A stretch of 64,000 nt of DNA, from the IMG/VR virus record IMGVR_UViG_3300007345_000033, one strand, 5' to 3'. The stretch's first letter is position 1; every line of letters begins with the position of its first letter. A program made the position numbers and the translations under genes. This DNA is from a virus. Shown piece by piece: positions 5,670 to 48,767 of this stretch. Below the pieces are notes generated by a model. The model worked only from the letters and a program-made list of their open reading frames with translations, searched no databases and had not been told where the DNA came from.

Positions 5670-5675
5670 AACCTC

Positions 5676-15760: not shown

Positions 15761-15810
15761 TAAAAATCCTAACAAAGAGTTAGGTAACATAAACTTTAGA
15801 GGAGTTCTAA

Positions 15811-17246: not shown

Positions 17247-17456
17247 ATGACTCTTCTAGAGACTATACTTGCTTGTACTCTACTTTGGGTTTATTACATA
17301 GGTGGGGTTGCAATATCTAATTTGTTGCAATTTCCACCTGATTATGAAGGGGAAAGGCCAAATGGTTTGTATTTCGTATTTTGGCCTTTGGTTTTGACGA
17401 TTGAGTTGTTTATGTTATTCGTAATCAATCCTGGTCATGGAGATGATGAAGAATAA
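17247..17456 (+). CDS. small membrane protein
   Basis: Two hydrophobic segments. ATGTCA overlap with the next gene. Confidence 0.35.
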   Translation: MTLLETILACTLLWVYYIGGVAISNLLQFPPDYEGERPNGLYFVFWPLVLTIELFMLFVINPGHGDDEE

Positions 17457-17707
17457 TGTCAGCCAGATTCAGAAATAAATCGATGTTGACCGAAAGAGTA
17501 AGAACTCTGGAGTTTAAGAACTATTCTCAGTTAGATTTTGATATAAAATATCATGCTTTTGAAAATGGGGAAATTACACTGGAGGATGCATTTCCTGATA
17601 TTTCTGTCGAAGCTCAAGAATTTATTCTTTACGGAACAACCCGTCAAGAATGGGAAGATCTTAATAAAACTCCTGAAAGATCAGATTTTATCAGTGTGAC
17701 GACTTAA
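17456..17707 (+). CDS. hypothetical protein
   Basis: Coupled ORF. Confidence 0.3.
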   Translation: MSARFRNKSMLTERVRTLEFKNYSQLDFDIKYHAFENGEITLEDAFPDISVEAQEFILYGTTRQEWEDLNKTPERSDFISVTT

Positions 17708-21475: not shown

Positions 21476-22480
21476 AAATTGCGAGGTATAGCTCGCTTGT
21501 CCCATGATCTTCGGGTCATGGGAATAGGGTAAGACTGGTAACAGTCCCAAAGGCAGGTTTCCTATAAACTGCCGCCAGCAATGGTCCTTCTATACAAGCT
21601 CAGAGTGGAGTTGACTCGGTTGATAGCCGAAAGCAACTCGTTGTCAGTAGAATGGCAATAGTGGAGCAAGGTAGAATTGTAGTCCGAAAGGATGTGACCG
21701 GAGCCAATCGGTGAGGTCTAATTGACTGTGGTGGTGAAGCTACGATTAACCAAACTACCGAATCTTACACTCAATGAGTAGTTACTGAGTTTGACCATTA
21801 GCGTGGAAAGGCAAAGTAGCATTACAAGAGTTGAAAGGGTAGGACCTGGAAACTTGAAGTATCGTTTAGTATCCCGCAAGGAGAAAGACAGGTGATGTGT
21901 TGTATTTTGTATCCCAAAAGGATATGAAGCAACTGGAGTGGCACATCACAGTAGGTTCGCAAATTAGCTCATTTGGTAGAGCAAAAGACGCATAATCTTT
22001 AGGTAGTGGGTTCAAATCCTGCATTTGTTTAAAAAGCAAAGTCTACTCCGGTACGTCATTAAAGACGCTTAATACCATACTCGTAAGGGAATATGGTGCA
22101 TTGAAGCTCGCAAGGCGGATGTGTTTGTTTGGAAAGAAAACGTAAACTCTTAGCGGAGTTGAACTGCTCGCAAGGCAGGCGGAAGATTGAAAGACGAGTA
22201 GTGACGTATGACACAGGAAATGCCACCTGTATAAAAAGGCAGCGTTGGAAGATACTGTATTAGTGTTCCACACAATGCAGTGGATACGTAGAGAACGTGG
22301 CTCGCAAGGCTTACGATAATGCTACAAAAGACTTCCATCTTATGCTATAATCTCAGGCTAGGCAAAACTATCTTAAAAGATACACTGTGGGCTAACTAGT
22401 AACGCCGTTGCAGTAAAATGCGAGACGATAACGATTGTAAGTGCAAATCTTACCAGTGTATCTCTTAAGATAGTTTTAAA
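21476..22480 (+). ncRNA. candidate large structured ncRNA (about 1 kb, ORF-free, GNRA/UUCG tetraloop hairpins, repeated gctcgcaaggc motif)
   Basis: No credible ORF in about 1 kb of an otherwise gene-dense phage. Hairpin cccatgatc-UUCG-ggtcatggg at 21500. Multiple c-GCAA-g and GAAA loops. Motif gctcgcaaggc at about 22105, 22160 and 22300. Flanked by tRNAs, with an embedded tRNA-like element. Confidence 0.5.
21958..22028 (+). tRNA. tRNA-like element (anticodon CAT, G33, no CCA) embedded in the structured RNA
   Basis: D gctcatttggtagagc. AC stem aaaga/tcttt with loop cgCATaa. T gtgggttcaaatcctgc. Weak acceptor (6 bp). Possibly a pseudo-tRNA or a structural domain. Confidence 0.35.
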
Positions 22481-25280: not shown

Positions 25281-26243
25281 ATGAAAACAATCCTAGCAAC
25301 AATCCTACTAACAACTACTGCATTGACCGCAAGTGCGAATGATATTCGTATTGTTGGATCATCTACAGTATTCCCCTTTGCTTCGGCCGTGGTCGAACAG
25401 TTTTCTAACAAAACTGGAATGAAAGCAACAATTGAATCTACTGGTTCCGGAGGAGGATTCAAACTATTTTGTTCCGGTGTTGATGAAGATACTCCTACCA
25501 TTACCAATGCTTCTCGACGTATCAAAGATAAAGAGGTAGCACTTTGTCGGGATAATGGCGTGACCGAAGTAACTGAATATAAAATTGGTTATGACGGTAT
25601 TGTTTTGATCGGAAATATCGGCGGTTATGATATGGAGATTACCAACGAAGATTTGTTCTTTGCCCTGAACTCAACGATCAAATATGCCGGAGAAACCGTA
25701 CCAAATCCCTATACCAATTGGAGTGATGTTCGACCAGGCCTGCCCGATATTCCAATTGCTGTTATGGGCCCACCACCTTCGTCTGGTACACGAGATGCCT
25801 TTGAAGAATTGGTGATGGAACCAATTGCCAAGGCTTTTGACCTACATGTTGAACTTCGAGAAGATGGTGCCTATATTGAAGCCGGAGAAAACGATAATCT
25901 TATTGTCGAGAAAATCTCAAAAGATGACAATCTTTTTGGTATTGCTGGATTTTCATTCTTAGATCAAAATTATGAGAAAATTAAAGGTGCGGTTATCAAT
26001 GGTGTTGAACCAACCTACGATAATATTGCCGACGGCATTTATCCTGTTTCTCGTTCGTTGTGGTTTTATGTAAAAAATGATCATAATACCGTTATAGATG
26101 GTGTTGAAGATTACGTAAATGAATTTACTGATGAATCTACGTGGGGGCCTGATGGATATCTCGCTGACCTTGGATTGATTAGTCTTCCAGATGCAGAACG
26201 TGTTGCTCCTGAATTTGGTGTCACTAACGGTAAATTCCAATAA
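25281..26243 (+). CDS. pstS: phosphate-binding protein PstS family
   Basis: Signal peptide followed by IRIVGSSTVFPF...ESTGSGGGF, matching the PstS/PBP motif (GSSTV.P...GSG.G). Terminator hairpin gggagcttcggctccc at 26251..26266. Confidence 0.7.
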   Translation: MKTILATILLTTTALTASANDIRIVGSSTVFPFASAVVEQFSNKTGMKATIESTGSGGGFKLFCSGVDEDTPTITNASRRIKDKEVALCRDNGVTEVTEYKIGYDGIVLIGNIGGYDMEITNEDLFFALNSTIKYAGETVPNPYTNWSDVRPGLPDIPIAVMGPPPSSGTRDAFEELVMEPIAKAFDLHVELREDGAYIEAGENDNLIVEKISKDDNLFGIAGFSFLDQNYEKIKGAVINGVEPTYDNIADGIYPVSRSLWFYVKNDHNTVIDGVEDYVNEFTDESTWGPDGYLADLGLISLPDAERVAPEFGVTNGKFQ

Positions 26244-30236: not shown

Positions 30237-30606
30237 AGGAATATAGACTAATGACTCCCTTCGGAAAACTCCCCAAAGACGTACAACGTACCATGCAAAA
30301 AGAACTGGAAAAAGGCCAGACCTTTGAAATGTTTGAATTAAACTTCCAACAATGGTTTCCGTTGAATAATATAACAAAATTTGATGATAGTCTAATATAC
30401 CGTAAGACTAAGTGATAGTGAAAAGATCGTATAGTTTTTTATGTAGTTTAAACTGTACGGTCTAACCCTAAACAATAACATATGTTATATAATAAGTGTT
30501 AAAAAAACGAATGATTAAAAATCCCCAAAAATAAACCTCAGCGAATCAACGATTGTATCAGTCGTGTACGGCGATGTATGGCCTTGAAATGGAGACTAGA
30601 AAAACA

Positions 30607-31005
30607 ATGAAATTCCACGAAATTATCCCTGGATTGATTGATGGTAAAAGGTATCGTCGCCGGAATTGGAAAGACGCCACCAGATATATCTATGCTGATG
30701 TATATACTGATGGTAGCTATGACATATGCGATAACGATTCTTTTGTTGTTGACTCATCAATTGGTAACTGGCTTACTAGCGGTTATGATGAATGGGAAGA
30801 ATACAAAGAATATCCCAAAAATCTAAGCTTTATTGAGGCATGTCGTATGGCAAAAGAAGATGGTGCTGTTGTTAGCACGGGCAGCCGTTCTAATTATGAA
30901 TGGGATGATGGTGCACTGAGAATGCAACATTCAGTATATGTTATTTTTACAGATGAATGTGTTTTTGACAAATGGCATGTTGTTTATTATAAAGGAGAAA
31001 AGTAA
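30607..31005 (+). CDS. hypothetical protein
   Basis: Internal Met of ORF 30553..31005. Confidence 0.35.
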   Translation: MKFHEIIPGLIDGKRYRRRNWKDATRYIYADVYTDGSYDICDNDSFVVDSSIGNWLTSGYDEWEEYKEYPKNLSFIEACRMAKEDGAVVSTGSRSNYEWDDGALRMQHSVYVIFTDECVFDKWHVVYYKGEK

Positions 31006-31418
31006 TGACTGTACGTAATGAAAGCAAGCTAGCACTAGGTGATATGCATGCAGCTCATGTTCGTCATCTTATGATGGCTGAACGGGATGGTAAGACAATT
31101 CAACGTTATACTAATGGTTGGCATGATGTTCGCGAAAAATGCAATTGGTATCTAGATAATGTTTATCGTGTCAAGCCAAATATTGAATTGCGTATTCCAT
31201 GGGAAGTGATCGACCGGAGATGGCAATGGGCAGCTATGGATCGGAATCTAGAAGTGTTTATGTACCCGGAAAAACCAAAAATTAGTGAAAACTACGACGA
31301 CATGTGGGTTTCTGGTGGGGAAGATTATCGGCGGATTGATCATATCGTATTGTTCGATAATCTACCAGACCATAGCGATTGGAAGTTCACACTAACAAAG
31401 CGACCAAATGATGTTTGA
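31005..31418 (+). CDS. hypothetical protein
   Basis: ATGA-coupled. Trp-rich. Confidence 0.4.
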   Translation: MTVRNESKLALGDMHAAHVRHLMMAERDGKTIQRYTNGWHDVREKCNWYLDNVYRVKPNIELRIPWEVIDRRWQWAAMDRNLEVFMYPEKPKISENYDDMWVSGGEDYRRIDHIVLFDNLPDHSDWKFTLTKRPNDV

Positions 31419-31875
31419 TTTTAATAATTTGAAAATTGGTGATACTGTTTATCGGGTTATCGAAGAGTGCCGGATGTTTGATGATACCCCTGACAAAGAA
31501 TTCGCTGAGTTTGATGGTAAGGTGTGGTTTCGGTATACAGCCAAAACGTGGGTTGGAAAGATAAAAGAACTAACAGTGACTGGCAAAACCGCAACAAACA
31601 TTGAAGGTGATATTGGTAATTCTGGGGATAAATATGAACTTCTTGATCGGGTTTATCTAGTTGACGATAAATGTGATTATCAGTATATCACAATTGAAGA
31701 TATTAACGAACATGGAACTGTTGAGTATTTCACTGATAGAAAAGAAGCTGAGGAAAAAGTATCAAAGATTAATCGAATGCATGATCGAAATTTCTCAACA
31801 TTGAAAGAAGCTGAGGAACATCAGAAAAACGGTAGATTGTTAAAAATGAATATTCTAAAGTCTCTGGGAGATTGA
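31408..31875 (+). CDS. hypothetical protein
   Basis: Coupled ORF. Last plus-strand early gene before the repeat blocks. Confidence 0.4.
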   Translation: MMFDFNNLKIGDTVYRVIEECRMFDDTPDKEFAEFDGKVWFRYTAKTWVGKIKELTVTGKTATNIEGDIGNSGDKYELLDRVYLVDDKCDYQYITIEDINEHGTVEYFTDRKEAEEKVSKINRMHDRNFSTLKEAEEHQKNGRLLKMNILKSLGD

Positions 31876-32000
31876 TATGTGTAACGTACCAACATGGCTG
31901 ACCAACTCTCGTGACCAACATGGCTGACCAACTCTCGTGACCAACATGGCTGACCAACTCTCGTGACCAACTTCCTTGACCAACTTCCTTGACCAACTTC
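31876..32000. repeat. tandem direct repeats (23-bp unit x3, then 13-bp unit caacttccttgac x3)
   Basis: ccaacatggctgaccaactctcgtga repeated three times, then gaccaacttcc(t/c)t three times. Confidence 0.8.
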
Positions 32001-32254
32001 CCTGACAACATGGTGTAAAAAAAGGCGGTCAAAAGCCGCCCATACTTTTCTATTATAACAATGATTCCGGAAGTGTAATATACAATCCACTATACGTTTT
32101 TAATAATTTCTAAAATTAAGTTTTCATAATTCAATTCAATAGTAATGTATGTTTAATGCATAATGGGTATAATAAGGTCTAATGATAATTGCCTAACAGC
32201 TAGACCTTATTATACATTGTAATATAGTGTGTTGTATTGTATAATATGTTGGAT

Positions 32255-32400
32255 TCTTGGTTGCGCATTCTTGGTTCTAGAATCTTGGTTGCGCATTCCT
32301 GTTAGATTCCTGGTTGTAGATTCTTGGTTGCGCATTCTTGGTTCGCGAATCCTGGTTCCGGATTCTTGGTTCTCGATCGTTAAACGCTGGGTTAGGAAGG
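32255..32400. repeat. tandem degenerate repeats of about 14-16 bp (attcttggttgcgc / atcctggttc family, about 9 copies)
   Basis: Visible periodic reiteration of (a)ttc(t/c)tggtt(g/c/t)(c/t)(g/a) units. Confidence 0.75.
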
Positions 32401-32565
32401 ATCCGTTACATCGAAAGGATATTTCGGAAATGAGTTGTTTTCTTTCTTCGAACACGATGGAACCGATTAGTTCATTTCGAAACTCGTGGCGTTTAACTTA
32501 GTTTTATATCTTAACCGTTTAGGGGCTGAAAGTAAAGGGGTAATCCGTTGAATTCATTAATTTTT

Positions 32566-32814
32566 TTATGGCGATCGCGCGCTTCGGTCATAAAATATGA
32601 ATATGCCGACGGCGCGCCCAAGCACCTTATGAACTTGACCCATGATATCCGCAGCTAGCAAAGCGTCTCCGTTTGAAACTTTTAAGGCCACAGACATTAA
32701 AGTGCTGTTGGCATTAATCCGTTCAAATAAATCTGAACTGGTTTCCAAAGTTTTTAATGAAGGTTCAATTTCAGGCTGCCAAGAAAAAGTTTCCATTACA
32801 TCGCCGAGTTTCAT
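32566..32814 (-). CDS. small protein in a PeSL-like cassette
   Basis: Minus-strand ORF with the cassette promoter (revcomp ctttact-N17-tataat) immediately upstream at about 32830..32880. Confidence 0.4.
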   Translation of the reverse strand: MKLGDVMETFSWQPEIEPSLKTLETSSDLFERINANSTLMSVALKVSNGDALLAADIMGQVHKVLGRAVGIFIFYDRSARSP

Positions 32815-32915
32815 AAAACTTCTCCATAAGATTAAACCCCATTATACCCTAAGCTGCCATGGAAGTAAAGAGGTTTTTTATGGCCTGGCGCGCTGGGAGC
32901 CGAAGCTCCCATTTC

Positions 32916-33137
32916 TCATTTATTTTTAACCCATGGAATTTTCTCCAAATCTTTTCCAATCGCCTGCTCAATACGATCAATTGCATCATACTCATTATCA
33001 GCTACGCATAAAATGCCATAACCATCACCAATGGCGATAAACGGCCCGAGACGACCAACCAATCGTTCACAAACCAACGTACCATTCTCATAGGCACGAC
33101 GTATATTAATATCATTCAAACACATCAGCAAACCCAT
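32916..33137 (-). CDS. cassette small protein
   Basis: Minus-strand ORF flanked by a cassette promoter (33150..33200) and a terminator. Confidence 0.4.
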   Translation of the reverse strand: MGLLMCLNDINIRRAYENGTLVCERLVGRLGPFIAIGDGYGILCVADNEYDAIDRIEQAIGKDLEKIPWVKNK

Positions 33138-33520
33138 AGATTTAACTCCTTATTACCTATAGGTATGTTATACCCTAAGCTGCCATGGAAGTAAAGAGGT
33201 TTTATATGGCCTGGCGCGCTGGAGGAAATCCCTCCAGCTTTACGTTTATTTTTCTCGGTAATTGATATCAATCAATAGCATTACGGCGATCCCGATAAAC
33301 AAAACGGTGAAATAGACAAACACTCCAGCATAAGTCATTAATAGTTCTCCAGTACAAACAGATCATAAGCTACAAGGCCAATGATAACGAACACGAAAAA
33401 AGTAGTCATAGCGAACCCCTAAAAGCTATAGGTACATTATACCCTAAGCTGCCATGGAAGTAAAGAGGTTTTCTATGGCCCAGCGCGCGATGGAGAAAAG
33501 GGGGCCGAAGCCCCCTTAAA

Positions 33521-33769
33521 TCAGGCTACCTCAATTTCGGGTTCGGAGGCTTTGGCCTTAGTATCGGCAAAGCTTTCACCGGTTGCCCGGCCATTACGGA
33601 CAGCCGAACGATAAGCACGGGTAGCTTCCTTAATACCGAATCCATCCTTTTCCAAGTTTTCGGAATGGATAGCTTCCACGATCAGGGGAAGGACATCTTC
33701 CATAGCCTTGTCGGTGTTAGCGTTCATTACTCCAGCGACAACCGAACGGCGAGTAGGGCGATTCCACAT
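33521..33769 (-). CDS. cassette small protein, MWNRPTRRSVVA family (copy 1)
   Basis: 82 aa. Near-identical to 33901..34149, 36967..37215 and the N-terminus of 36054..36563. Own promoter, RBS (ggagttaaagctATG) and gggggccgaagccccc terminator. Confidence 0.6.
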   Translation of the reverse strand: MWNRPTRRSVVAGVMNANTDKAMEDVLPLIVEAIHSENLEKDGFGIKEATRAYRSAVRNGRATGESFADTKAKASEPEIEVA

Positions 33770-33900
33770 AGCTTTAACTCCTTATTAACTATACCCCATT
33801 GTACCCTAAGCTGCCATGGAAGTAAAGAGGTTTTCTTAGGTTTTTTAAGAATCCTCCGGCGCGCTCTGGCAAAAGAAAAGGGGGCCGAAGCCCCCTTAAA

Positions 33901-34149
33901 TCAGGCTACCTCAATTTCGGGTTCGGCAGCCTTAGCTTTAGAATCAGCATAGCTTTCACCAGGAGCACGACCGTTGCGAACAGCCGAACGATAGGCACGG
34001 GTAGCTTCCTTAATGCCAAAGCCATCTTTCTCTAAGTTTTCGGAATGGATAGCTTCCACGATCAAAGGCAAAACGGCTTCCATAGGCTGGCCTTCGTTAG
34101 CAGACATAACAGAGGCAACAACCGAACGGCGAGTAGGACGATTCCACAT
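33901..34149 (-). CDS. cassette small protein, MWNRPTRRSVVA family (copy 2)
   Basis: Paralog with the same flanking cassette elements. Confidence 0.6.
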   Translation of the reverse strand: MWNRPTRRSVVASVMSANEGQPMEAVLPLIVEAIHSENLEKDGFGIKEATRAYRSAVRNGRAPGESYADSKAKAAEPEIEVA

Positions 34150-34549
34150 AGCTTTAACTCCTTATTAACTATAGGTATGTTATACCCTAAGCTGCCATGG
34201 AAGTAAAGAGGTTTTCTTAAGTTTTCTTAAAAAATCCGCGAGCGCGCTGGGGAGCCGAAGCTCCCCGTTGGATCATGCTATGCTAGTATGGATTCTACGA
34301 AGGGATTCTTCGTCGATACCTTTCAATTCTTGTAGTGTACGTTTACGGATAGTCATCCGGTCCGAATCCTTGTGCATCGGATTGCTCATAATTTTGTCAG
34401 TGATGTGATTTGTAATCTCACGGCGGATGGCGGCAATGGTTTTCATAGCAGAACTCCTTAAAAGCTATAGGTACATTATACCCTATGCTGCTATGGAAGT
34501 AAAGAGGTTTTCTATGGCCAGCGCGCTGGGAGCCGAAGCTCCCCTTTCC

Positions 34550-34747
34550 TTATTCTTTCAACATACGTATTAGCATTTTTACTACGGCTGGATTATCCAT
34601 TTTAAAGATTTTGGTATTTTGGCCTGTATTCTGTGGTGGCACATATTCAAACCACGCACCGCTCTCATCCCGGCGAAAGCGAAGGCACTCCCCGGCTGGA
34701 CGGTCGATATCACCTAACACTAGATTGCCGTAATTATTTTTATTCAT
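34550..34747 (-). CDS. cassette small protein
   Basis: ORF with a cassette promoter and terminator. Confidence 0.4.
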   Translation of the reverse strand: MNKNNYGNLVLGDIDRPAGECLRFRRDESGAWFEYVPPQNTGQNTKIFKMDNPAVVKMLIRMLKE

Positions 34748-34864
34748 CAGCAGGTCTCCTTAAAAGCTATAGGTACATTATACCTTAAACGGGCATGGAA
34801 GTAAAGAGGTTTTTTATGGCCAAGCGCGCGATCGCGAAAAAAGGGAGCCGAAGCTCCCCTTTCC

Positions 34865-35038
34865 TTACTCATCAATATTAGCTAGAGCAGCTGGGCGCCA
34901 ATCATAATCAAACGCAGCGAGTTGACGGGCAAGCTCACACAAAAACGTCCAGTCGTCACCGTAGACCCGGCACTCTTTAATATAACGGTCATAAACGGCA
35001 GAAGCGGCTTCAAAGGCAACACGAGTGGTAATCATCAT
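34865..35038 (-). CDS. cassette small protein, MIKTR/MMITTR family (copy 1, 57 aa)
   Basis: Below the ORF-track cutoff. Manually translated MMITTRVAFEAASAVYDRYIKECRVYGDDWTF... Paralog of 35503..35682 and 35791..35937. Confidence 0.45.
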   Translation of the reverse strand: MMITTRVAFEAASAVYDRYIKECRVYGDDWTFLCELARQLAAFDYDWRPAALANIDE

Positions 35039-35156
35039 TTAAGGCTCCTTATTAACTATAGGTCATTATACCCTAAGCTGCCGTGGAAGTAAAGAGGTTT
35101 TCTTAGAATTCTTCGGCGCGCTTCGGGTAAGAAAAAAGGGGCCGAAGCCCCTTTCC

Positions 35157-35387
35157 TCAAAGTTCTTTTTCAACTATTTCAATATATTCGTTCAGAATAT
35201 CACGAACATTTTTTACATCATAAAGATCGGCGAAAGTAAAAGTTGGGGAATTATAAGAATCTCCAGGGATAACTTCTAACTCAATAGTTAGCTGGGTAGA
35301 ATTATCAGCAAATTCCTCAATATATATTCCCATTTTTTCGTGGCTAAGGTCGAAGCCTTCAGAAATATAAGAATTTTTGATAGACAT
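35157..35387 (-). CDS. cassette small protein
   Basis: ORF with a cassette promoter and terminator. Confidence 0.4.
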   Translation of the reverse strand: MSIKNSYISEGFDLSHEKMGIYIEEFADNSTQLTIELEVIPGDSYNSPTFTFADLYDVKNVRDILNEYIEIVEKEL

Positions 35388-35502
35388 AATTTGCTCCTTT
35401 AAGTTATAAGAGTATATTACCCTAAGCTACCGTGGAAGTAAAGAGGTTTTCTTAGAATCCGTGAGCGCGCCATCGCGAAAAAGGGGCCGAAGCCCCTTTC
35501 CT

Positions 35503-35682
35503 TATGTAAAGTCGTATCCTAGTGCTTTTAATAAAGCCTCGGCGCATCTACGGTCATAATCGGCGAGTTGACGGGATATCTCAGACAAAAACTTCGAGTC
35601 GTCACCGGACGTCCGGCCCTCAGCAATATATTTGTCATAAACGGCACAAGCGGCCTCGTAGGCAAGACGGGTCTTAATCATA
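35503..35682 (-). CDS. cassette small protein, MIKTR family (copy 2, 59 aa)
   Basis: Manually translated MIKTRLAYEAACAVYDKYIAEGRTSGDDSKFLSEISRQLADYDRRCAEALLKALGYDFT. Confidence 0.45.
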
Positions 35683-35790
35683 GTAGAACTCCTTAGTAAC
35701 TATAGGTATGTTATACCCTAAACGGGCATAGAAGTAAAGAGGTTTTCTTAGAATTCTTCAGCGCGCTGGGGAGCCGAAGCTCCCCGTTGA

Positions 35791-35937
35791 TCATTTCAGA
35801 TAGGTACGTTCGTATTCACCGATTTGATAAGCAAGCTCAAACAAAAACTTGAAATCGTTACCAGACGTCCGGCCCAAATCCTGATAGGACTGATAAACGG
35901 CTAGAGCAGCTTCGTAGGCAACACGGGTCTTAATCAT
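35791..35937 (-). CDS. cassette small protein, MIKTR family (copy 3, 48 aa)
   Basis: Manually translated MIKTRVAYEAALAVYQSYQDLGRTSGNDFKFLFELAYQIGEYERTYLK. Confidence 0.45.
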   Translation of the reverse strand: MIKTRVAYEAALAVYQSYQDLGRTSGNDFKFLFELAYQIGEYERTYLK

Positions 35938-36053
35938 AGCAGAACTCCTTATTAACTATAGGTCATTGTACCCTAAGACGCCATGGAAGTAAAGAGGTTT
36001 TCTTAGAATTCTTCAGCGCGCTGGCAAAAGAAAAGGGGCCGAAGCCCCTTTAA

Positions 36054-36563
36054 TCAGTATCCAGTAAGGTTAGAAACTTGTTCTACAGAAAGCGAACTAG
36101 GGGAAGCATAAGGATCGTCAAACGAAGTATCGTAATCGTCCGAACGTTTTTGTTCTTGGGCTTCTTTTTTGATTTCTTCGTCTTGTTCCTTAGCTTTTAG
36201 CTTTGCTCGGTAATCCATTAGACGCTTCATATTAGCCTGGACAACAGCATCCTTTTCCTGATCGGTAATAGTTTCTTTTGTCTCAGACTTTTTCTGTTTT
36301 GGGCTTGCTGTAGTAGCTACCTCAATTTTAGTTTTCTTTTTACGGGGTTTTGGGCTAGCTACTTTACGTTCCGGCATTACTCCGGTTGCTCGACCGTTAC
36401 GGACAGCCGAAGCATAATGACGACGAGCGACTTTAAGGTCACATTCAAAACCGGCTTCCAATTCAGCTTCTACGATCAGGGGAAGGACGTCTTCCATAGC
36501 CTTATCGGTGTTAGCGTTCATTACTTCGGCAACAACCGAGCGACGGGTTGGTTTGTTCCACAT
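36054..36563 (-). CDS. cassette protein: MWNRPTRRSVVA-family N-domain + Lys/Glu-rich C-terminal extension
   Basis: N-terminus MWNKPTRRSVVAEVMNANTDKAMEDVLPLIVEA is homologous to the 82-aa family. The C-terminal half is low-complexity and charged. Confidence 0.5.
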   Translation of the reverse strand: MWNKPTRRSVVAEVMNANTDKAMEDVLPLIVEAELEAGFECDLKVARRHYASAVRNGRATGVMPERKVASPKPRKKKTKIEVATTASPKQKKSETKETITDQEKDAVVQANMKRLMDYRAKLKAKEQDEEIKKEAQEQKRSDDYDTSFDDPYASPSSLSVEQVSNLTGY

Positions 36564-36667
36564 AGCTTTAACTCCTTAGTAACTATAGGTATGTTATACC
36601 TTAAACGGGCATGAAAGTAAAGAGGTTTTCTTAGAATTCTTCTGGCGCGCTGGCAAAAAGATCCTTC

Positions 36668-36850
36668 CTATTGTTTCCAGGCGTGTTTGATATCGTCGTA
36701 AAACTCTTCAAGTTGAGCTTTCCAATAAGCACGATATGCCGCAAAAGGACTATTGAACGATAGATTATTTTCCGCACACCATACTCTAACGTCAGCCTCA
36801 ACCATAGCTTCTAGATCAGAATGCATTGAGCAAATTTTAGGATATTCCAT
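36668..36850 (-). CDS. cassette small protein
   Basis: ORF with flanking cassette elements. Confidence 0.35.
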   Translation of the reverse strand: MEYPKICSMHSDLEAMVEADVRVWCAENNLSFNSPFAAYRAYWKAQLEEFYDDIKHAWKQ

Positions 36851-36966
36851 ATTCTCTCCTTTAATATATTTTTAAAGTATAGCCTATAAGATCATGATAG
36901 TAAAGAGGTTTTCTTAGAATTCTTCGGCGCGCGAAGCGAAAAAAAGGGGGCCGAAGCCCCCTTAAA

Positions 36967-37215
36967 TCAGGCTACCTCAATTTCGGGTTCGGTAACCTTA
37001 GCCTTGGTATCAGCATAGCTTTCACCAGGAGCACGTCCATTACGAACGGCAGAACGGTATGCACGGGTAGCTTCCTTCATACCAAAACCGTCTTTCTGGA
37101 GATCGTTAGAATAAATAGCTTCAACGATCAGGGGAAGGACAGCTTCCATAGGCTGACCTTCGTTAGCAGACATAACAGAGGCGACGACAGAGCGACGGGT
37201 TGGTTTATTCCACAT
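36967..37215 (-). CDS. cassette small protein, MWNRPTRRSVVA family (copy 3)
   Basis: Paralog. Terminator gggggccgaagccccc at 36945..36960. Confidence 0.6.
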   Translation of the reverse strand: MWNKPTRRSVVASVMSANEGQPMEAVLPLIVEAIYSNDLQKDGFGMKEATRAYRSAVRNGRAPGESYADTKAKVTEPEIEVA

Positions 37216-37295
37216 AGCTTTAACTCCTTATTAACTATACCCCATTGTACCCTAAGATGCCCTGGAAGTAAAGAGGTTTTCTTAAGAATCTTCGC

Positions 37296-37420
37296 GCGCT
37301 GGACCAACCAACTGCCAACCAACTATATACTAACCAACCAACTGCCAACCAACTATATACTAACCAACCAACTGCCAACCAACTATATACTAACCAACCA
37401 ACAACTAACCAACCAACTAA
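37296..37420. repeat. tandem direct repeats (30-bp unit x3 plus partial)
   Basis: ccaaccaactgccaaccaactatatactaa repeated three times, followed by degenerate ccaacc units. Confidence 0.8.
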
Positions 37421-37799
37421 CGATAAAATACTCAAATTGTATGCGAGCGCGGTGCCCGTATAATAATTTGAATTTCGTAGAAAAGTTCTTTCGGTTCCCC
37501 GTAAAATACGGTATAATGTAAATAATATAAAAGTTTCTTAGGAGATACGTTATGGAATCCCATTTCTTCGTGGTTCGTTTCTTTATTATGATGGGCTGTA
37601 TTTTGGGTAGTATTCTTATTCTCGCCCATATAGCTGATACTTTTATTATATATTAGTATACACGAGTAACGCTTGAGCGGTAGCGCTGCGCTAGCGCTAT
37701 ACTTAAAGCTTACGAACGAATCATGCGCTAGGGTCATTTTTATTCTAACCCCCCCCCACCATTAATACATATGGTTCGGGGGTTTAGGAGTTTTTGAGT

Positions 37800-37920
37800 A
37801 TAAGCATCGCCAACGAGAGTCAACGAGAAGGAAGAGTCTTCAACGAGAGTCAACGAGAAGGAAGAGTCTTCAACGAGAGTCAACGGGAAGGAAGGGTCGC
37901 CAACGAGAGTAAACGAAAAG
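37800..37920. repeat. tandem direct repeats (31-bp unit x3 plus partial)
   Basis: caacgagagtcaacgagaaggaagagtcttc repeated with minor variants. A C8 homopolymer at about 37750 lies just upstream. Confidence 0.8.
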
Positions 37921-38143
37921 CAAGGCGATAAACGATTTTCTTTTAACTAAAGCCTTACCTCATCTTTAAGGGATTTCGCTTTGCCTTATATATAAAAAAA
38001 CCGCCGGGAAATTTTTTGGTATCAAAAGGTCGATTAATAATAGTTTATTATAAAAACCAAGGGTCTATACTATACTAAAAGTTTTGTATCAAGCTTTAGC
38101 TATTTGTTGAATTATTACCTAAGACAAGATTACCGTACCCTTT

Positions 38144-38527
38144 TCATTCATCTGCTAAAATTTCTCCAATAATATCTTCTAGGTCAAAGTTCTTGTAAGC
38201 AACCTTCTTGCCAGTTCTATGATCAACAACACGATTATCAGGTTCATTGTAAGTCCTAACAATATCCGTGGCATTGAACCGATTTTTTTGATCCTCTCCA
38301 TAATACCACTGAACAACCTTCTTGGCAAGTATATTAAACGCTTCCTTTAGATTTCGTGATCTTTCTCTATGGTTCTGTCCGATTACAGTAATACCTGACT
38401 CAATATGAGTGATACGAACGCAGTTTTGGTGCTTATTTCGATGTTGACCACCAGCACCAGTTCCTGAAAACCAGTCTAGCTTAAAATCCTTTTTGGTCCA
38501 AGACTTATCTGGAATTTTATTAGTCAT
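38144..38527 (-). CDS. GGQ-motif peptidyl-tRNA hydrolase domain protein (ArfB/YaeJ/ICT1-like class I release factor domain)
   Basis: SGTGAGGQHRNKHQNCVRITHIESGITV matches the RF-1 domain SGxGGQxVNKxxSAVRxTHxPTGIVV, including the catalytic GGQ. 127 aa, as in ArfB. Confidence 0.6.
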   Translation of the reverse strand: MTNKIPDKSWTKKDFKLDWFSGTGAGGQHRNKHQNCVRITHIESGITVIGQNHRERSRNLKEAFNILAKKVVQWYYGEDQKNRFNATDIVRTYNEPDNRVVDHRTGKKVAYKNFDLEDIIGEILADE

Positions 38528-38838
38528 TATTCACTCATCTTTTTCACATCAAGTGGGATTGCGTTATGTAAAGCCATAAATCCACAATTCATTCCCATTA
38601 TATATGCATCTGCATCAAAGCCAAATACGTTATATAAAACGTAACGATATGATCCCTGGTCTTCTAGTTCACCTTTTACAATACGGCTAACTACCGAGTA
38701 GAATGCCTTCATTTGGTCTTCCTTCGAAAGACTTTCCCACCAGGCGTCCATTTCTTGTTTTTCTTGTTCGATTAATGCTTGAAATTCTTGAGTTTGATCA
38801 GACAATTTTTGCATAATATTTTCTTTATCATTAGTCAT
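38527..38838 (-). CDS. hypothetical protein
   Basis: Coupled ORF (ATGA). Confidence 0.4.
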   Translation of the reverse strand: MTNDKENIMQKLSDQTQEFQALIEQEKQEMDAWWESLSKEDQMKAFYSVVSRIVKGELEDQGSYRYVLYNVFGFDADAYIMGMNCGFMALHNAIPLDVKKMSE

Positions 38839-39461
38839 CTAACAAAAGCTCCTATTCTCCCATTTAACTCTTTTGAATCAATAAACTTATACCCCATCGG
38901 TGGAACTTTATTTTGACCTTCCCATACAGGTATAAACTCCTTTATTCCATTATCAAAGTCAACATTTCTTCTGAAATGCACTTCAATTAGTTTGCCACCA
39001 ATAAATTCACAGTTAATAATTTCTTTATTAGAAAACTGATTTAGAATAGACGGGAACGGTATGGTTTTGTCTGTTTTAATCCAACGATCCCAACGGGTCA
39101 TTGTATTTTCTTTTTTGATACCTTTGACACACAACGTCTGCTTTCCATAAACATAATCTACACTTAGATGATCACCTTCGAAGAACTCTGACCAAAAATG
39201 TCCCACAGGCATGTTATCCGTTGTGTTTTCTATCCAAACCTTTTTGGCCCCCATACCAAGGCCGAGTGCATTAACACAAGGTCTGACGATATACCAATCT
39301 GGTTTCGGCACCCTTTGTCCCACAGGACCGCAGATGTAATTTAGTTTTCTGGATAGAATAAGTTTATCCATAACCCACATTTCATCTGGATCGGCATTCA
39401 TCCAGTAGTATTCTTCTGGACAAGGTTCTGGAAGATCAAATTTCATATCCCTTAACACCAC
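38835..39461 (-). CDS. hypothetical protein
   Basis: 208 aa, coupled ORF. Confidence 0.4.
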   Translation of the reverse strand: MVLRDMKFDLPEPCPEEYYWMNADPDEMWVMDKLILSRKLNYICGPVGQRVPKPDWYIVRPCVNALGLGMGAKKVWIENTTDNMPVGHFWSEFFEGDHLSVDYVYGKQTLCVKGIKKENTMTRWDRWIKTDKTIPFPSILNQFSNKEIINCEFIGGKLIEVHFRRNVDFDNGIKEFIPVWEGQNKVPPMGYKFIDSKELNGRIGAFVR

Positions 39462-39724
39462 CAGTTTATTTGGTCAAACTGATTTTCCTCTTTATCAATT
39501 TTATTTTCCAGCTCCACCGCCAAATTTCTCATTTTATATTTAAAGTTTTTATAATAATCCATCATCATATAATGAATATCTTCAACTAACTTGGGATTGG
39601 TCACCAGGATCAGAGTATCGGAAACTGTAAGTATGATATATTCTTCTCCAATTTCAGGTTCAGTAATCTCTCCGCATATCTTTCCCGGAAAATATGTTAA
39701 ATCATCTATATATGGATAAATCAC
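39452..39724 (-). CDS. hypothetical protein
   Basis: Coupled ORF. Confidence 0.35.
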   Translation of the reverse strand: MIYPYIDDLTYFPGKICGEITEPEIGEEYIILTVSDTLILVTNPKLVEDIHYMMMDYYKNFKYKMRNLAVELENKIDKEENQFDQINWWC

Positions 39725-40035
39725 CGAAGGTGATAATCCGTCGTCATAGTTCGTTCCGTAGGTTCTTACCTACGCCGAATACTTTCTTGGTTCGTTAGTT
39801 ACCTTACCCAAAATTTTTAGTTTCTTTATTTCAATCATAAATCAATCATATTTCTTGATACCATATTAAGTATGATGTAACTGAAAATCATTCCCAATAT
39901 GAATCCCGTGACTAGGCCTAAAAATAATCCAATAAAAAATACCATCAATCGTCCTTAAAAAAATCCAGGTAAATTAACGTAAATGCCGCGCCAAATAATA
40001 TTGTATAGTATATAATAAGGAAAATAATACCCATA

Positions 40036-40410
40036 TTATCTCAGGGCTTCTTCATAATATCGAATAACATCATTTTGTTGTGATACATAAGCCTTTAATT
40101 TGGCCAAATTCACCGAAAGCCTTTCATAGTCCTTGACCGTGATAGCAACATATGAAGCCTTTGGATCCTTAACCAAATAGGTTTCAAAAAACTCTTTATA
40201 GTTACCACCGTTAATAACTTTGATTCTTGGTGGGGTTAAATTTGGAATCTCTGGCCTAACCGCCAATGGTACTTGAATTGGTACGGCCTTCTCAATAACT
40301 ACTGGAGGGCTTGCTAATGCCGTCCCTTGGGGTTTGTTGGTAGCCACTCCACAGCTAGTTAGAAGGGCCAGTGAAATCAAAGAAATTATTAAAAGTTTCA
40401 TTCGTTGCAT
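40036..40410 (-). CDS. lipoprotein (candidate o-spanin)
   Basis: Signal peptide with lipobox LLTSCG. Start lies inside the 3' end of the upstream membrane/coiled-coil gene. Confidence 0.4.
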   Translation of the reverse strand: MQRMKLLIISLISLALLTSCGVATNKPQGTALASPPVVIEKAVPIQVPLAVRPEIPNLTPPRIKVINGGNYKEFFETYLVKDPKASYVAITVKDYERLSVNLAKLKAYVSQQNDVIRYYEEALR

Positions 40411-40768
40411 TTTGCATTCTCTTTTCGATTAGTGTTGGTTTCTTAATGGATAAATCAGTCAAATCGTGTTTATTTAATTTTTCTTGTAAAACTCTAACCC
40501 TTCCATTGGAAGCCGTCAAATTTTGTTGCAATTTATTGTTTAGCTCTTCATATTTTTCAATTGAGTCTTTGAGGCTGTTGATAGTCTCTACACTACTCTC
40601 AACATTTCTGACCAAAACTCCATTGTCACTTAAGAGTTGAAGATATTGCGACTTTAAGTTTTTGGTTGTGACCTGATTATAAACATTCCAGCCTGTCATT
40701 CCAATTAACAGTGTTATTAATACTTTTGTGAAGACTCCACTGAAAACTTGCTTTAAGAGTAAAAGCAT
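40355..40768 (-). CDS. N-terminal TM + coiled-coil protein (candidate i-spanin)
   Basis: TM segment VFTKVLITLLIGMTGWNVY followed by a heptad-rich periplasmic region. Overlaps the downstream lipoprotein gene. Confidence 0.4.
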   Translation of the reverse strand: MLLLLKQVFSGVFTKVLITLLIGMTGWNVYNQVTTKNLKSQYLQLLSDNGVLVRNVESSVETINSLKDSIEKYEELNNKLQQNLTASNGRVRVLQEKLNKHDLTDLSIKKPTLIEKRMQNATNETFNNFFDFTGPSN

Positions 40769-43994: not shown

Positions 43995-44385
43995 AAAAAA
44001 CAGTTGATAACTTATAAAAATTCCTTTACTTCTAAACTAAAATTAAATATACTATATAAATAATAAGCGGATTTGATTATCAGATTCTAAAAGTTATTCA
44101 GGACACGGGGGCAGTTCCCGTCGTCTCCACCAGAAGAGTATTGGTTATCAGGGTTGGAATAAACCTGGTGTAATAGATTTTCCAAACGTCCAGTACTCTT
44201 TTGATGGGGACGATTCAGGTTCGACTGGTAATAAGTAAGTTCTCTGTAGAATACGCTATTTAAAAATAAATGCTAACGATAACTTCAAAGCATTTGATTA
44301 CGCCTTAGCTGCGTAATCATTGGGCGGCCACTGCCTCGAAACAGAAGTGTGGCATTATTTCCTAAAATTTTATGAAAGGTTTAAC

Positions 44386-44754
44386 ATGAAAACATTTTTG
44401 ATTGCAACTACTGCATTGGTAGTTTCAACAACAGCAGCCTTGGCTGGTGGAATGCAACCAGGCGTTTGGTCTGGTGAGGCTTTTGCAGAATATGGGGTAA
44501 ATGCCCAAGATGTAACACTTGGAGGCGGTGTTGCTTATGATATCAACTCAGTTAGCTTGTGGACTGAAACTGAACTTCAAGTAGCTCAAGAAGTTGATTT
44601 GACTTTGAGTGATGTTACCTTTGGTGCAGATTATGCAATTCTACCTCAAGTAGATGCGTATATGGCATTTGAGTTTGCTGGTAATCCAGATGCAGCTAAT
44701 GGTCTTGGGGTTGAATATAATGAAACTTCAATTGGCCTTCGCTACGAGTGGTAA
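44386..44754 (+). CDS. secreted small beta-barrel outer-membrane-like protein
   Basis: Signal peptide MKTFLIATTALVVSTTAALA. Alternating hydrophobic pattern. C-terminal ...GLRYEW (terminal aromatic, typical of OM beta-barrels). Terminator ggggagcttcggctcccc at 44762..44779. Confidence 0.45.
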   Translation: MKTFLIATTALVVSTTAALAGGMQPGVWSGEAFAEYGVNAQDVTLGGGVAYDINSVSLWTETELQVAQEVDLTLSDVTFGADYAILPQVDAYMAFEFAGNPDAANGLGVEYNETSIGLRYEW

Positions 44755-46658: not shown

Positions 46659-48767
46659 TTACCCAACTTTCGTACTTACCGAACCTCTATGTGTTGGCGA
46701 TGGTTCTATATTTCTGGCCGTCTGCGTAAATGATGGCGGTCTTCCTTTACCAGAGATTGAATCCGAAGGTCCGTTATCAGGGCCAGTATTACGACTATCT
46801 TCTGAACTTTGTTGTCTTATAAGTTCCATGTTTTTAGCTGCATCATTTGCGGCGACCTTCTGTCCAGCAGTAGGATCTACTAGTTCACTTGAATCTGTAA
46901 CTGGTGGTTGATTAGCCATTTCTGCATTCAATGATAACGGTGTATCTTTAGTTGGAGAATTAACTTCAATGGCTTCAGCACTACCCCCAGCGGGCTGTAC
47001 TGGAGTTGGCATTGTATTTAATTGTTCGGAAGATAAAGGTAAAGTTGTTTCTGATAATGTAGGGAGTTTTGGTATCGATAATGGAGAACTAGAAGAATTC
47101 TCCGTAGCAGACGACCCGACTCCATTAACTTGGGCTCTTGATGGGGTTATTGGAATTTCTCCGGTTGTGGATTTTGTTGTATTAGAAATTCGCGGCCCGC
47201 TATATAAAGTTCTATCAAATATATCATTAAGAATATCAGGAGACTCAGTTCCCGGCGGAGCTGGATACAATTTTGAAAAATTAGAAACAGCTGGCCCCAA
47301 TGGTCCTCCATTATCGGGGGTTGTTTGTTGTGGTGTTTGTTGTCGTTGCGGCGTATTTGTTTGTTGTGGTGTTTGTTGTGGTTGCGGGGGTTGATTCATA
47401 ACATTAATTTCTTCGAAGATGGTTTCTCCAAGCTCTTTAACTGGCTTTATCCATGCTCCGCTTAAATCTTTACTAATACTAAGAGCCCCTTCTCTTATAT
47501 ATGGGTCTTGTAATACAGATCTTAATCTTTCAGCTCGTTCTTGTGGGTCTAAATCTGAACTAAATAAGCCAGCATTTTTCATTTCTTCTAGAGCTTTGAT
47601 TTCTGCTTCTGAAAGGTTTCCAACAAAAGGGCCTTTTCCATCTTTTATAAATCTATTCACTATAGATTCAAAGGTAGAAATATTTTTCGGATCTGCGGCT
47701 TCGAAATAATTTGCTAATTTATCAGGTGTGCTGGGTTCTTGCTCTTGTTGAGTTTGAGTTGCTGACGAAGCTTGAGTTGGTGCCGCAGGAGTACTATTTT
47801 CAATCCCAGTCGAAGATTCAATAGATTTCTTAACAGCATCTACTCGTTGATTAGTAAGATTAGTATCCAAATATTCAGATAAAAAATTATCTTTTTTCGC
47901 AAAAGGAAGCGGTGAGGTATAATCATTACTGAAAGTTTCCAAAATATCAGGTTGTTTTGACATACTGAAATTACTTATCGGATCATTTTCATCTTTTATT
48001 TGTTGATTAATTGCGGCTTTAATCGGGTCAACTGCTGGTCTTGTTTGCGGATTGGATATTGTTGTACTTGGTGTACTTGGTGTAGATAATGTTTGTGCTG
48101 TTGAAGATCCGGTCGCAGCGCCTCTTCCGAGGTTAGAAAAGAGTGAAGATCCTGTCGCAGCGCCTCCTCCGAGGTTGGGAAGAAGTGAAGAACCTAATGA
48201 TCTTACTCCGGATACAAAATTACCAAGAGATCCTAATCCGGAATTTCCTCTGAAATTACTACTTCTACTATTTCCACCAGAATTCCCTCCAAAAAAACTA
48301 TTTACCGGAAAAGACTTTTGAATTAAATTTGGAACTAATGGAGCCATTAAAGCTGTTCCTGTCGATAATCCACTAATCACTCCGCCCATACCAAATGATG
48401 ATAAAATATTATCAAGTCCGCTTTGAATTGGTGAAGGGGTCGTCGATTGTGATTGTGTTCCAGCAGAAAAATTACCAAAACTGCTAATTGAACGAGTTAT
48501 TCCTTCCGCAAATTCTTTTAGATTTTTGGTTAATGAAACTATTTCTTTTAGAATTTGGCCTTGAGATAATAAAGATTGCTGAGTAGAATTGTTTAAATTT
48601 TTAACTTCTTCTGAAATAGAAGAACCTTTATTTGCTATTTTTTCTAAACTAGGTTTTAGTTTTAAGCTGTTGGATTCTCGAATAGTTTCTATTAAATCTC
48701 CAACCCCCAATTCGAAAGGATTTATATTTTCCGAGATTTCTATGTTTTGTGATGTGTTATTTTGCAT
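46659..48767 (-). CDS. large low-complexity (Ser/Thr/Gly/Pro/Gln-rich) protein
   Basis: 702 aa, with reiterated TPQQ and GGNS motifs. Coupled to the downstream 1197-aa gene. Confidence 0.45.
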   Translation of the reverse strand: MQNNTSQNIEISENINPFELGVGDLIETIRESNSLKLKPSLEKIANKGSSISEEVKNLNNSTQQSLLSQGQILKEIVSLTKNLKEFAEGITRSISSFGNFSAGTQSQSTTPSPIQSGLDNILSSFGMGGVISGLSTGTALMAPLVPNLIQKSFPVNSFFGGNSGGNSRSSNFRGNSGLGSLGNFVSGVRSLGSSLLPNLGGGAATGSSLFSNLGRGAATGSSTAQTLSTPSTPSTTISNPQTRPAVDPIKAAINQQIKDENDPISNFSMSKQPDILETFSNDYTSPLPFAKKDNFLSEYLDTNLTNQRVDAVKKSIESSTGIENSTPAAPTQASSATQTQQEQEPSTPDKLANYFEAADPKNISTFESIVNRFIKDGKGPFVGNLSEAEIKALEEMKNAGLFSSDLDPQERAERLRSVLQDPYIREGALSISKDLSGAWIKPVKELGETIFEEINVMNQPPQPQQTPQQTNTPQRQQTPQQTTPDNGGPLGPAVSNFSKLYPAPPGTESPDILNDIFDRTLYSGPRISNTTKSTTGEIPITPSRAQVNGVGSSATENSSSSPLSIPKLPTLSETTLPLSSEQLNTMPTPVQPAGGSAEAIEVNSPTKDTPLSLNAEMANQPPVTDSSELVDPTAGQKVAANDAAKNMELIRQQSSEDSRNTGPDNGPSDSISGKGRPPSFTQTARNIEPSPTHRGSVSTKVG

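Follow-up and report, generated by a model that had tools for sequence, protein, structure and literature searches.

The 64,000-nucleotide stretch of DNA analysed here (IMG/VR virus record IMGVR_UViG_3300007345_000033, hereafter the window) is part of a large, tRNA-rich T4-type myovirus, and contains an array of small gene cassettes flanked by four blocks of tandem repeats, designated A, B, C, and D from left to right. A preliminary description had located these blocks between positions 31,876 and 37,920 and had likened them to the iterons of replication origins. All four blocks were present at the places described, and they occupied ranks 1, 2, 3, and 5 in the window when analysed with Tandem Repeats Finder (scores of 171, 123, 201, and 179 for blocks A, B, C, and D, respectively). 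The only further array with a score above 60 in the 64 kb (139; 48102-48195) lay within a long open reading frame (ORF). The non-coding DNA holding the blocks had been put at about 850 bp, but actually amounts to about 690 bp on the left (31876-32565) and about 930 bp on the right (37216-38143, with an ORF of 34 amino acids (aa)).

The cassette array (32566-37300, - strand) comprises about 14 small genes, each with a TTTACT-17-TATAAT/TACAAT promoter, an AGGAG ribosome-binding site, and a GC-rich hairpin. Promoter-early stem-loop (PeSL) cassettes of the hyperplastic regions of T4-type phages were reportedly described by Arbiol in 2010. The region between the blocks, with its small ORFan genes, promoters, ribosome-binding sites, and hairpins in a T4-type phage, conforms to the PeSL type, whereas the four blocks themselves have neither a -10 element nor a hairpin and are not PeSLs. 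The PST/T4 PeSL consensus is TTTACW-N17-TAYWAT (Comeau 2014, PMC4122927), and PeSL elements in hyperplastic regions were proposed in that article to mediate shuffling; a search of it by term gave no description of flanking word arrays. The 17-mer of the cassette promoters gave only chance matches in IMG/VR.

Block A (31888-32010, + strand, gene-sense) consists of 9-10 units of 13 bp, each made up of the word TGACCAAC and five variable nucleotides, and is laid out as ACCAACATGGCTG/ACCAACTCTCGTG three times followed by ACCAACTTCCTTG three times. The first part, reported as 23 bp in three copies, is therefore a unit of 26 bp in three copies. The last + strand gene (31408-31875) has its stop codon 12 bp ahead of the block, and all eight forward TGACCAAC sites of the window lie inside it. 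Block B (32252-32375, - strand) holds about nine (approximately 8.7) imperfect 14-bp units, ATTCTTGGTTGCGC. Read as GCGCAACCAAGAAT in the sense of the cassette genes (- strand), it has one ACCARGA word per 14 nt, and it is placed downstream of the last cassette gene. Block C (37303-37421, + strand) is a 30-bp unit in 3.7 copies built as 15-bp half units with the word AACCAACCAAC, and it is bordered by the first cassette promoter (37272..37244, - strand) on one side and by a + strand promoter on the other. Block D (37806-37924, unstranded) contains 3.8 copies of 30 bp, not three of 31 bp, composed of CAACGAGAGT CAACGAGAAG GAAGAGTCTT. Its + strand is purine-rich; its - strand, the coding strand for the upstream genes at 38144-40768, is pyrimidine-rich (C/G 1.65). 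A homopolymer does lie near this block, but it is a C9 run (37749-37757) about 50 bp to the left of D, not the C8 run reported.

The blocks had been considered to differ in sequence from one another, which was not the case. Blocks A and C have ACCAAC(T) in common on the same strand, B and C have TTGGTTG in common in inverted orientation, and A and D have ACGAGAGT in common, also inverted. ACCAA-type words underlie three of the blocks, as TGACCAAC per 13 nt in A, AACCARG per 14 nt on the opposite strand in B, and AACCAACCAAC per 15 nt in C. Their non-coding status, in contrast, stood: translation was implausible on the grounds of period, stop codons, ORF starts, and the free spacers in relatives. 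Neither of the periods of 13 and 14 bp is divisible by three. The sense strand of block A has stop codons in all three frames because its word opens with TGA and a 13-bp period shifts the frame from unit to unit; B and C do not close all frames. The ORFs that overlap the blocks start with TTG or GTG without a ribosome-binding site, and one of them overlaps a cassette promoter. Furthermore, relatives keep the word but not the spacers, which are free to vary, and this argues against coding. One caveat is that the first array unit overlaps the last codons of the upstream gene in the relatives L081 and L050.

Blocks B and D were also the two densest clusters of GANTC (CcrM sites) in the window, with six and five sites per 150 bp, respectively. 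GANTC is not depleted genome-wide (201 observed vs 215 expected), and the clustering was rejected as meaningful; it may follow simply from the repeat sequence. A likeness of 8-mers in B and D to the 1100 region of 16S rRNA was dropped, as several such matches are expected by chance according to our estimate.

Relatives were sought by scanning public collections for three TGACCAAC words in 13-bp register. Syntenic relatives with the same word and other spacers were found in L013/L085, in L050, which has two arrays, and in L074/L081, where all five spacers differ (5/5). Eighty further loci were fetched via the neighbouring DUF932 gene (64-71% identity). The arrays of L147 and L164 have about six and about nine units, respectively; those of L136, L141, and L143 were found upstream of a gene for a 72-aa protein; and the word takes the form GACCTAAC in L148 and TGACCACC in the second array of L141. 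By chance, about 0.001 arrays of at least three ACCAAC with 11-16 bp spacing are expected in 1.06 Mb, against an actual count of six, each of them on the same strand as the DUF932 gene. The sampled proteins of the related T4-type phages that share the A-type word are 35-85% identical.

Copies of the consensus word, T-G-ACCAA-C-W, are mostly spaced 13 bp apart, and the sequence between them is free. A position profile built from 12 arrays, with 63 distinct units, showed conservation outside the pentamer used as the anchor: G at -1 carried 0.98 bit and C at +5 carried 1.06 bit, T at -2 and W at +6 were preferred, and the information in the spacers was about 0 bit. Of 58 intervals, 33 had a register of 13 nt, nine of 12 nt, and six of 14 nt, and intervals of 12 or 14 nt were tolerated within a single array. 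A word that is kept while its spacers are free is the signature of a recognition word rather than of drift.

Perfect 13-bp repeats with three TGACCAAC words also occurred in cellular genomes and many metagenome contigs. These came from unrelated, mostly high-GC taxa or giant-virus-like contigs and were treated as background; one of them, L077, encodes MORN and ankyrin proteins. The gene adjoining block A had no relative in IMG/VR, and relatives of the phrog_3577 gene (at most 66% identity) had no comparable arrays. In IMG/VR, the block C word had no match and the block D word had single chance matches only, without arrays or relatives. Slipped copies of the -35 box were rejected as an explanation of the arrays, as the -35 box differs among the lineages that were read directly (TTTACT in the window, TTGACA in L050, and TTGAYT in L013 and L141) while the array word is constant. 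A second non-coding word, AATCCCGTTTTAGAAATGC, is conserved downstream of the gene for the 72-aa protein (L013, approximately 3045-3065; L164, approximately 6405-6425), and is followed by lineage-specific CA-rich repeats (51 bp in three copies in L164) before the first cassette.

The placement of the blocks on both flanks of the cassettes, which had been called suggestive, is not an accident of one genome, since ACCAAC-type arrays bracket cassettes in L050 and L141 too. They are blocks A and C in the window, the head and tail of the gene block in L050, and the left and right arrays in L141. To the right of the cassettes, L141 has small hydrophobic ORFs, a lineage-specific array (TCGAGGTAAT in 4.4 copies), and a hairpin formed by G/C runs, an order that matches that of C, hydrophobic ORF, C9 hairpin, and D in the window. 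The arrays occupy junctions of transcription units, either past the final gene of an operon, shortly ahead of a sigma70-type promoter, or against a start codon. Five arrays have a promoter-like site on the same strand within 31 nt downstream, namely the L050 head (12/12), L081 (11/12), the second array of L074, and blocks C and B of the window. In seven of eight lineages, an array abuts the ATG of the conserved 72-aa gene, which has no Shine-Dalgarno sequence; this is not so in the lineage of the window, and its block A is bounded by a stop codon on one side and a terminator on the other. Wherever the genes flanking an array were read (the window, L013, L050, L074/L081, L141, L147, and L164), the word proved to be on the gene-sense strand, and in L136, L143, and L148 the strand was assigned from the orientation of the match to the 72-aa gene. 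The sense-strand C/G ratio of the arrays is 1.3-7.5, as compared with 0.75-0.84 for the genome. Taken together, these comparisons support the view that binding-site arrays have been set deliberately on both flanks of the cassettes, and they extend it to a phage clade.

Strain contigs, recovered by exact-protein look-ups, matched the window at more than 99.9% identity along 29.2-42 kb. Their alleles measured 128 or 102 nt for block A, 123 or 63 nt for block C, and 122 or 92 nt for block D, whereas block B was 130 nt in all ten strain contigs. This constancy of B is uninformative on constraint, because the whole left region has only four substitutions in 2.3 kb. Whole-unit indels were essentially the sole structural polymorphism among the strains, indicating that the arrays slip fast yet are never lost. 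Variability in related phages, which the preliminary description had named as evidence against its reading if it went without a phenotype, was thus seen in part: A, C, and D varied by whole units among near-identical strains, but absence was seen for no block. Contigs frequently break at the blocks. Synteny with relatives whose neighbouring gene is 78-85% identical stops at 31875-31886, which is the start of block A. As a search for recombination breakpoints, the strain comparison was uninformative, the strains being too similar.

The criteria for rut sites given by Nadiras 2018 (PMC6144790) are a C>G bubble on the non-template strand in a 78-nt window, the pattern [(YC)N9-13]n with n of at least 4, and low RNA structure; a 12-13 nt RNA spans adjacent Rho subunits (PMC6144790). 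When the whole window was ranked by C>G bubbles on its + strand, block C came first (maximum C-G of 28 per 78 nt) and block A second (20). Block A can be written as (CC N11) nine times, which fits [(YC)N9-13]n. Its RNA was predicted to be unstructured, with a minimum free energy of -9.6 kcal/mol and a z-score of +2.55, and that of block C to be essentially unstructured (-0.4 kcal/mol). Blocks A and C thus resemble rut sites in being the top + strand bubbles, in carrying YC at a 13-15 nt register in at least eight copies, and in being unstructured; in addition, A is untranslatable in all three frames, and the A-type arrays whose flanking genes were read lie on the sense strand, after or between genes. 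They differ in that natural rut sites are loosely defined, non-repetitive, and without a conserved word, whereas the arrays keep a word of 9-10 nt, and blocks B and D fit poorly. Since Rho needs only YC, the conserved word of 9-10 nt would call for a further, sequence-specific reader.

Three blocks are built on an ACCAA word that is kept at the same boundaries in relatives, and they therefore look like binding platforms at the edges of transcription units and not like an origin. Our favoured reading, held tentatively and at somewhat under an even chance, is that the arrays may be strand-polar boundary or insulator elements of early transcription units, which would be read by a sequence-specific factor. 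Of the readings considered, this one accounts for the most facts, namely the polarity, the position at junctions, the 12-14 nt register, the excess of C over G, the lack of structure, and the stop codons in all frames. The arrays would act as boundary or insulator elements co-directionally with transcription. The nascent RNA of an A- or C-type array would be long, unstructured, C-rich, and G-poor, with CC once per about 13 nt, to which A would add TGA in every frame. Such an RNA could be a near-ideal loading platform for an oligomeric, ring-shaped reader of single strands, for which the termination factor Rho is the obvious candidate, and Rho-like loading would keep transcription from reading through into the cassette region or out of it. 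The added sequence-specific reader might be encoded by the phage or the host and might act on RNA, single-stranded DNA, or double-stranded DNA. Block D would join this architecture by position only.

We also consider, with a low probability, that the arrays are the cis half of an undescribed control system of T4-type phages, polar and specific for the sequence, in which an oligomeric ring or filament would count UGACCAAC at about 13 nt on the transcript or on displaced single-stranded DNA. Such a reader could work alone, in the manner of TRAP, or as an adaptor that loads or blocks Rho, and the system would delimit immediate-early transcription and govern how neighbouring genes without a Shine-Dalgarno sequence are translated. 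The variants GACCTAAC in L148 and TGACCACC in L141 suggest that the word may co-evolve with its reader.

Several observations weigh against arrays as boundary elements. An intrinsic terminator already follows block A, and in relatives the array directly precedes a gene that must be expressed. Block C is upstream of and antisense to the present cassette promoters; only for the small + strand ORF is it in sense orientation. Blocks B and D are outside the top 12 C>G bubbles on the - strand, and D has no relative anywhere in the collections searched. A rut role alone leaves the conserved word of 9-10 nt unexplained, as Rho recognises only YC. Moreover, there are only about seven independent placements, because the sense orientation is partly inherited by synteny. 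Finally, no reader protein was identified among the candidates tried, neither of which gave a significant match.

One of these candidates was the 72-83-aa protein (phrog_20898), encoded at 17456-17707 (+ strand) in the window and at 2769-2987, 6138-6359, and 2327-2542 in L013, L164, and L147, respectively. The window copy of the gene follows a hydrophobic ORF and has no array upstream. As a binder, this protein remained unsupported: Pfam, a PDB profile search, an AlphaFold model (pLDDT 68.6, all-helical), and Foldseek were all uninformative, and no DNA- or RNA-binding fold was detectable in these searches. The other candidate was a three-helix family found in the cassettes of every lineage examined. 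In the window, 82-aa copies are encoded at 33521-33769, 33901-34149, and 36967-37215 (- strand), and a 169-aa long form with a Lys-rich linker at 36054-36563 (- strand); long forms with such a linker are also encoded at 3936-4451 in L013 and 6483-7103 in L141. The protein belongs to no Pfam or PHROG family. Its model is a three-helix bundle (pLDDT 78.6) whose structural matches were weak and non-significant, mostly to winged-helix DNA-binding domains, and these weak matches were all that spoke for it as the reader. No TRAP-like or repressor protein was found, and no partition NTPase was present among the ORFs scanned.

Block A is followed by a bidirectional intrinsic terminator hairpin, GGGCGGC/GCCGCCC (32023-32041, unstranded), whose T run on the - strand (T7) is stronger than that on the + strand. 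Next to it, an AT-rich spacer (32042-32250; 209 bp, GC 0.24, unstranded) separates A from B. The spacer holds a perfect 15-bp inverted repeat (32167-32181 / 32201-32215) and promoter-like sites, one on the + strand (TTGTAA-17-TATAAT, 32217-32245) and two on the - strand (32243..32216 and 32079..32052). A small RNA candidate of about 190 nt could be read from the - strand at 32023-32245, with the promoter-like site 32243..32216, the 15-bp hairpin, and the T7-run terminator 32041..32023. The - strand of 32020-32510 folds with a z-score of -3.9, and the spacer may encode a small RNA on this strand. A + strand transcript from the spacer promoter through block B had no excess structure (z-score of -0.18). 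In 31700-38300, no Rfam family was found, even at E of at most 1.

On the other side of the cassettes, a promoter-like TTGTAT-16-TATAAT (37437-37464, + strand) lies upstream of the 34-aa hydrophobic ORF (37552-37656), which has an AGGAG ribosome-binding site; small hydrophobic ORFs occur at the equivalent position in L013 and L141. The region from this ORF to block D is a hairpin region (unstranded), with a GC palindrome at 37676-37698 and then the C9 run at 37749-37757, which is able to pair with GGGGG at about 37779. G/C-run hairpins were present at the same relative place in L013 (approximately 5220-5390) and L141 (approximately 7935-7975). The cassettes themselves are on the strand opposite to those of L013 (3420-5010), L141 (5795-7560), L164 (from 6860), and also L050. 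The hydrophobic ORF and the C-run hairpin to their right keep the same orientation in the window and the relatives. This arrangement suggests an inversion of the cassette region that would be bounded by blocks A/B and C.

A scan with the block B signature matched 68 IMG/VR contigs, in which the word formed 7-bp heptad arrays (ACCAAGA 268 times, ACCAATA 37 times, and others including ACCATTA). Fifty-seven heptad arrays were recorded in L237-L304 (IMG/VR), e.g., at 5458-5493 of L250, inside the ORF 5072-5833. In six heptad contigs inspected, the arrays lay in the middle of ORFs of 222-302 aa with similar N-termini, and two of these proteins, scanned against Pfam, were DUF1376/YdaU. The variation among the heptads ignores codon positions, and they are therefore probably the iterons of a lambda-O-like origin, situated inside a lambda-O-like gene. 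A limited literature search found no published description of heptad arrays in DUF1376 genes. Block B differs from them in that ACCARGA occupies only every second heptad, the block is intergenic, and no DUF1376 was found in the window; tblastn of two DUF1376 proteins against the whole window gave nothing outside block B.

Four other explanations were weighed against the boundary elements. Origin iterons, one of the readings offered by the preliminary description, appear rather unlikely. In this case, A and B would be opposed arrays of initiator sites around an AT-rich unwinding region with a promoter, and C and D would be a second cis site comparable with P4 ori/crr or T4 oriE. Iteron origins available for comparison are the lambda ori inside gene O, plasmid oriV, the P4 ori/crr octamers, and the T4 oriE iterons. 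The blocks are like them in having direct repeats of one word by AT-rich DNA, with two sets several kilobases apart as in P4 ori/crr, and the block B word equals the ACCAAGA heptads of the DUF1376/YdaU (lambda-O-like) replication genes described above, in which variation that ignores codon positions would suit iterons. Several direct repeats, as looked for in an iteron origin, were found in all four blocks. Nine ACCAA-type words stand inverted on either side of the 209-bp spacer of GC 0.24, within which lie promoter-like sites; the word occurs nowhere but in the arrays, which would suit a cis site present in a single copy; and gp59 and gp32 are encoded in the window, so that T4-type replication is expected. 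However, the periods, at 12-15 bp, do not match a helical phase of about 11 or 22 bp and differ inside single arrays (13 bp is modal in A-type arrays, 14 bp in B, and 15 bp in C), the uniform sense-strand polarity would not be expected of an origin, and in most relatives the array lies within an operon, between two co-transcribed genes and abutting an ATG. As for an unwinding element, the AT-rich spacer is only the seventh least stable 200-bp stretch of the window, and the GC contents of the flanks of C and D are 0.38 and 0.30, respectively. In the R-loop origins oriF and oriG of T4, the unwinding element is downstream of a promoter, whereas the + strand promoter at 32217-32245 fires into block B, with a GC content of about 0.46 (0.44-0.50), and the AT-rich DNA is upstream. 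A scan of the 20 largest ORFs, the flanking ORFs, and ten cassette ORFs gave no Rep, O, DUF1376, RepE-like initiator, or partition gene. DnaA boxes (TTATCCACA, at most one mismatch) numbered 29 in the window against 22.7 expected, with none in 31876-32565 or 37216-38143. Of the iteron idea, the signature of a multi-copy recognition site, with its conserved word and free spacers, survived, but the origin-specific features did not, and the origin reading fails most of its defining tests.

As the preliminary description had also allowed for, the arrays might instead be recombination boundary elements, i.e., hot spots or linkers at which the cassette region is exchanged, inverted, or deleted, possibly as a polar octamer like Chi of E. 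coli (GCTGGTGG), with which the complement of the array word (GTTGGTCA) was compared. Arrays bracketing a hyperplastic region in three lineages, the break of synteny at 31875-31886 where block A starts, the cassettes strand-flipped relative to L013, L141, L164, and L050 with the inverted words of B and C at their flanks, and a conserved word with free spacing and strict polarity, which would suit a signal read by a translocase, all agree with this; PeSLs of the same regions were also proposed to mediate shuffling (PMC4122927). Nevertheless, we consider it improbable, as an 8-nt word with differing spacers is too little homology for exchange between phages, the word is not enriched elsewhere in the window, the strain variants show only unit slippage and no cassette exchange at the blocks, and no recombinase adjoins the arrays among the flanking ORFs scanned. 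Little probability is likewise given to operator arrays on double-stranded DNA, which a DNA-binding protein would coat to activate or block early promoters, as in the heptads of omega/ParR or the stoperators of mycobacteriophage L5, which depend on orientation. The kept word and free spacers, the five arrays directly upstream of sigma70-type promoters, the array directly before a small conserved gene in seven of eight lineages, and the three-helix protein with a Lys-rich tail and mostly winged-helix weak matches inside every cassette region would be accounted for; but register shifts of +/-1 bp within arrays would rotate the sites round a rigid duplex, neither candidate protein has a significant DNA-binding match, the word is missing from other promoters of the window, and there is no promoter downstream of block A. 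In parC-ParR, omega heptad, and tubC-TubR arrays, the array stands directly before the gene of a small DNA-binding protein that has a partner NTPase; here, the array abuts the gene of the 72-aa protein in seven of eight lineages but not in that of the window, and this protein had no significant fold or sequence match. Arrays of (G/U)AG repeats bound by TRAP and the stoperators of L5 are polar multi-site elements. The arrays share with them a short word, variable spacers, a fixed orientation, and a position at gene junctions or over start codons; they differ in having a word of 8-10 nt rather than a triplet, tandem rather than dispersed sites, and a lytic T4-type phage as carrier. The orientation rule of L5 stoperators holds for the arrays, but their word is found only inside them (8/8 forward sites) and is not dispersed over the genome. 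It is very unlikely that the blocks are neutral, slippage-prone minisatellites in the only sizeable non-coding DNA of the region, even though A, C, and D are polymorphic by whole units among strains more than 99.9% identical, contig breaks are common at the blocks, perfect 13-bp TGACCAAC repeats occur as background in unrelated genomes, and D has no relatives. A word of 9-10 nt, its register, and its strand have been kept while the spacers randomised across phages whose sampled proteins are 35-85% identical, and recurrence at both cassette edges in three lineages would be unexpected. Neutrality is already disfavoured for blocks A and C; it may apply mainly to D, and possibly to B.

With regard to the phage itself, the window encodes the T4-type markers gp5 and gp6 of the baseplate as well as gp32 and gp59. 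Its gp6 is about 35% identical to those of Caulobacter phage Cr30 and the Sinorhizobium phiM12 group, which are the nearest cultured relatives, albeit distant; INPHARED contained no close phage relative at the nucleotide level. About 24 tRNA genes lie at 11.5-22.6 kb. Within this cluster, a GOLLD RNA (Rfam RF02032, 224.5 bits) was found at 21892-22359 (+ strand), enclosing a tRNA-Met gene (21958-22030), and an ORF with a NUMOD3 motif, possibly a homing endonuclease, is located among the tRNA genes. A permuted two-piece tmRNA gene of the alpha type (44026-44407, + strand; tag peptide ANDNFKAFDYALAA) hints at an alphaproteobacterial host. The auxiliary genes at 14693-17127, 25281-26243, and 13134-13790 encode NUDIX and cytidylyltransferase (NadR-like) domains, NAMPT, and a PstS-like phosphate-binding protein. 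The region of blocks and cassettes is flanked on one side by an ORF with a Tad2-like (anti-Thoeris) domain (30553-31005, + strand), with an E-value of 5e-5 and a score of 24.2 bits, just under the Pfam cut-off of 25. On the other flank, the first of the - strand genes beyond block D (38144-38527) encodes a protein with an RF-1/ArfB-like peptidyl-tRNA hydrolase domain (E-value of 4e-19).

How T4-type phages confine transcription to their plastic early regions, and how they exchange these regions, is poorly understood. The arrays are a conserved polar element located exactly at the boundaries of such a region, and they are short, polymorphic in copy number, and experimentally tractable. If the arrays do load or block Rho, or serve a new reader, they would explain the boundary between immediate-early and delayed-early transcription in T4-type phages other than coliphages. 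If they are instead an origin or a recombination signal, they would represent a new cis site for a large and environmentally abundant group of phages.

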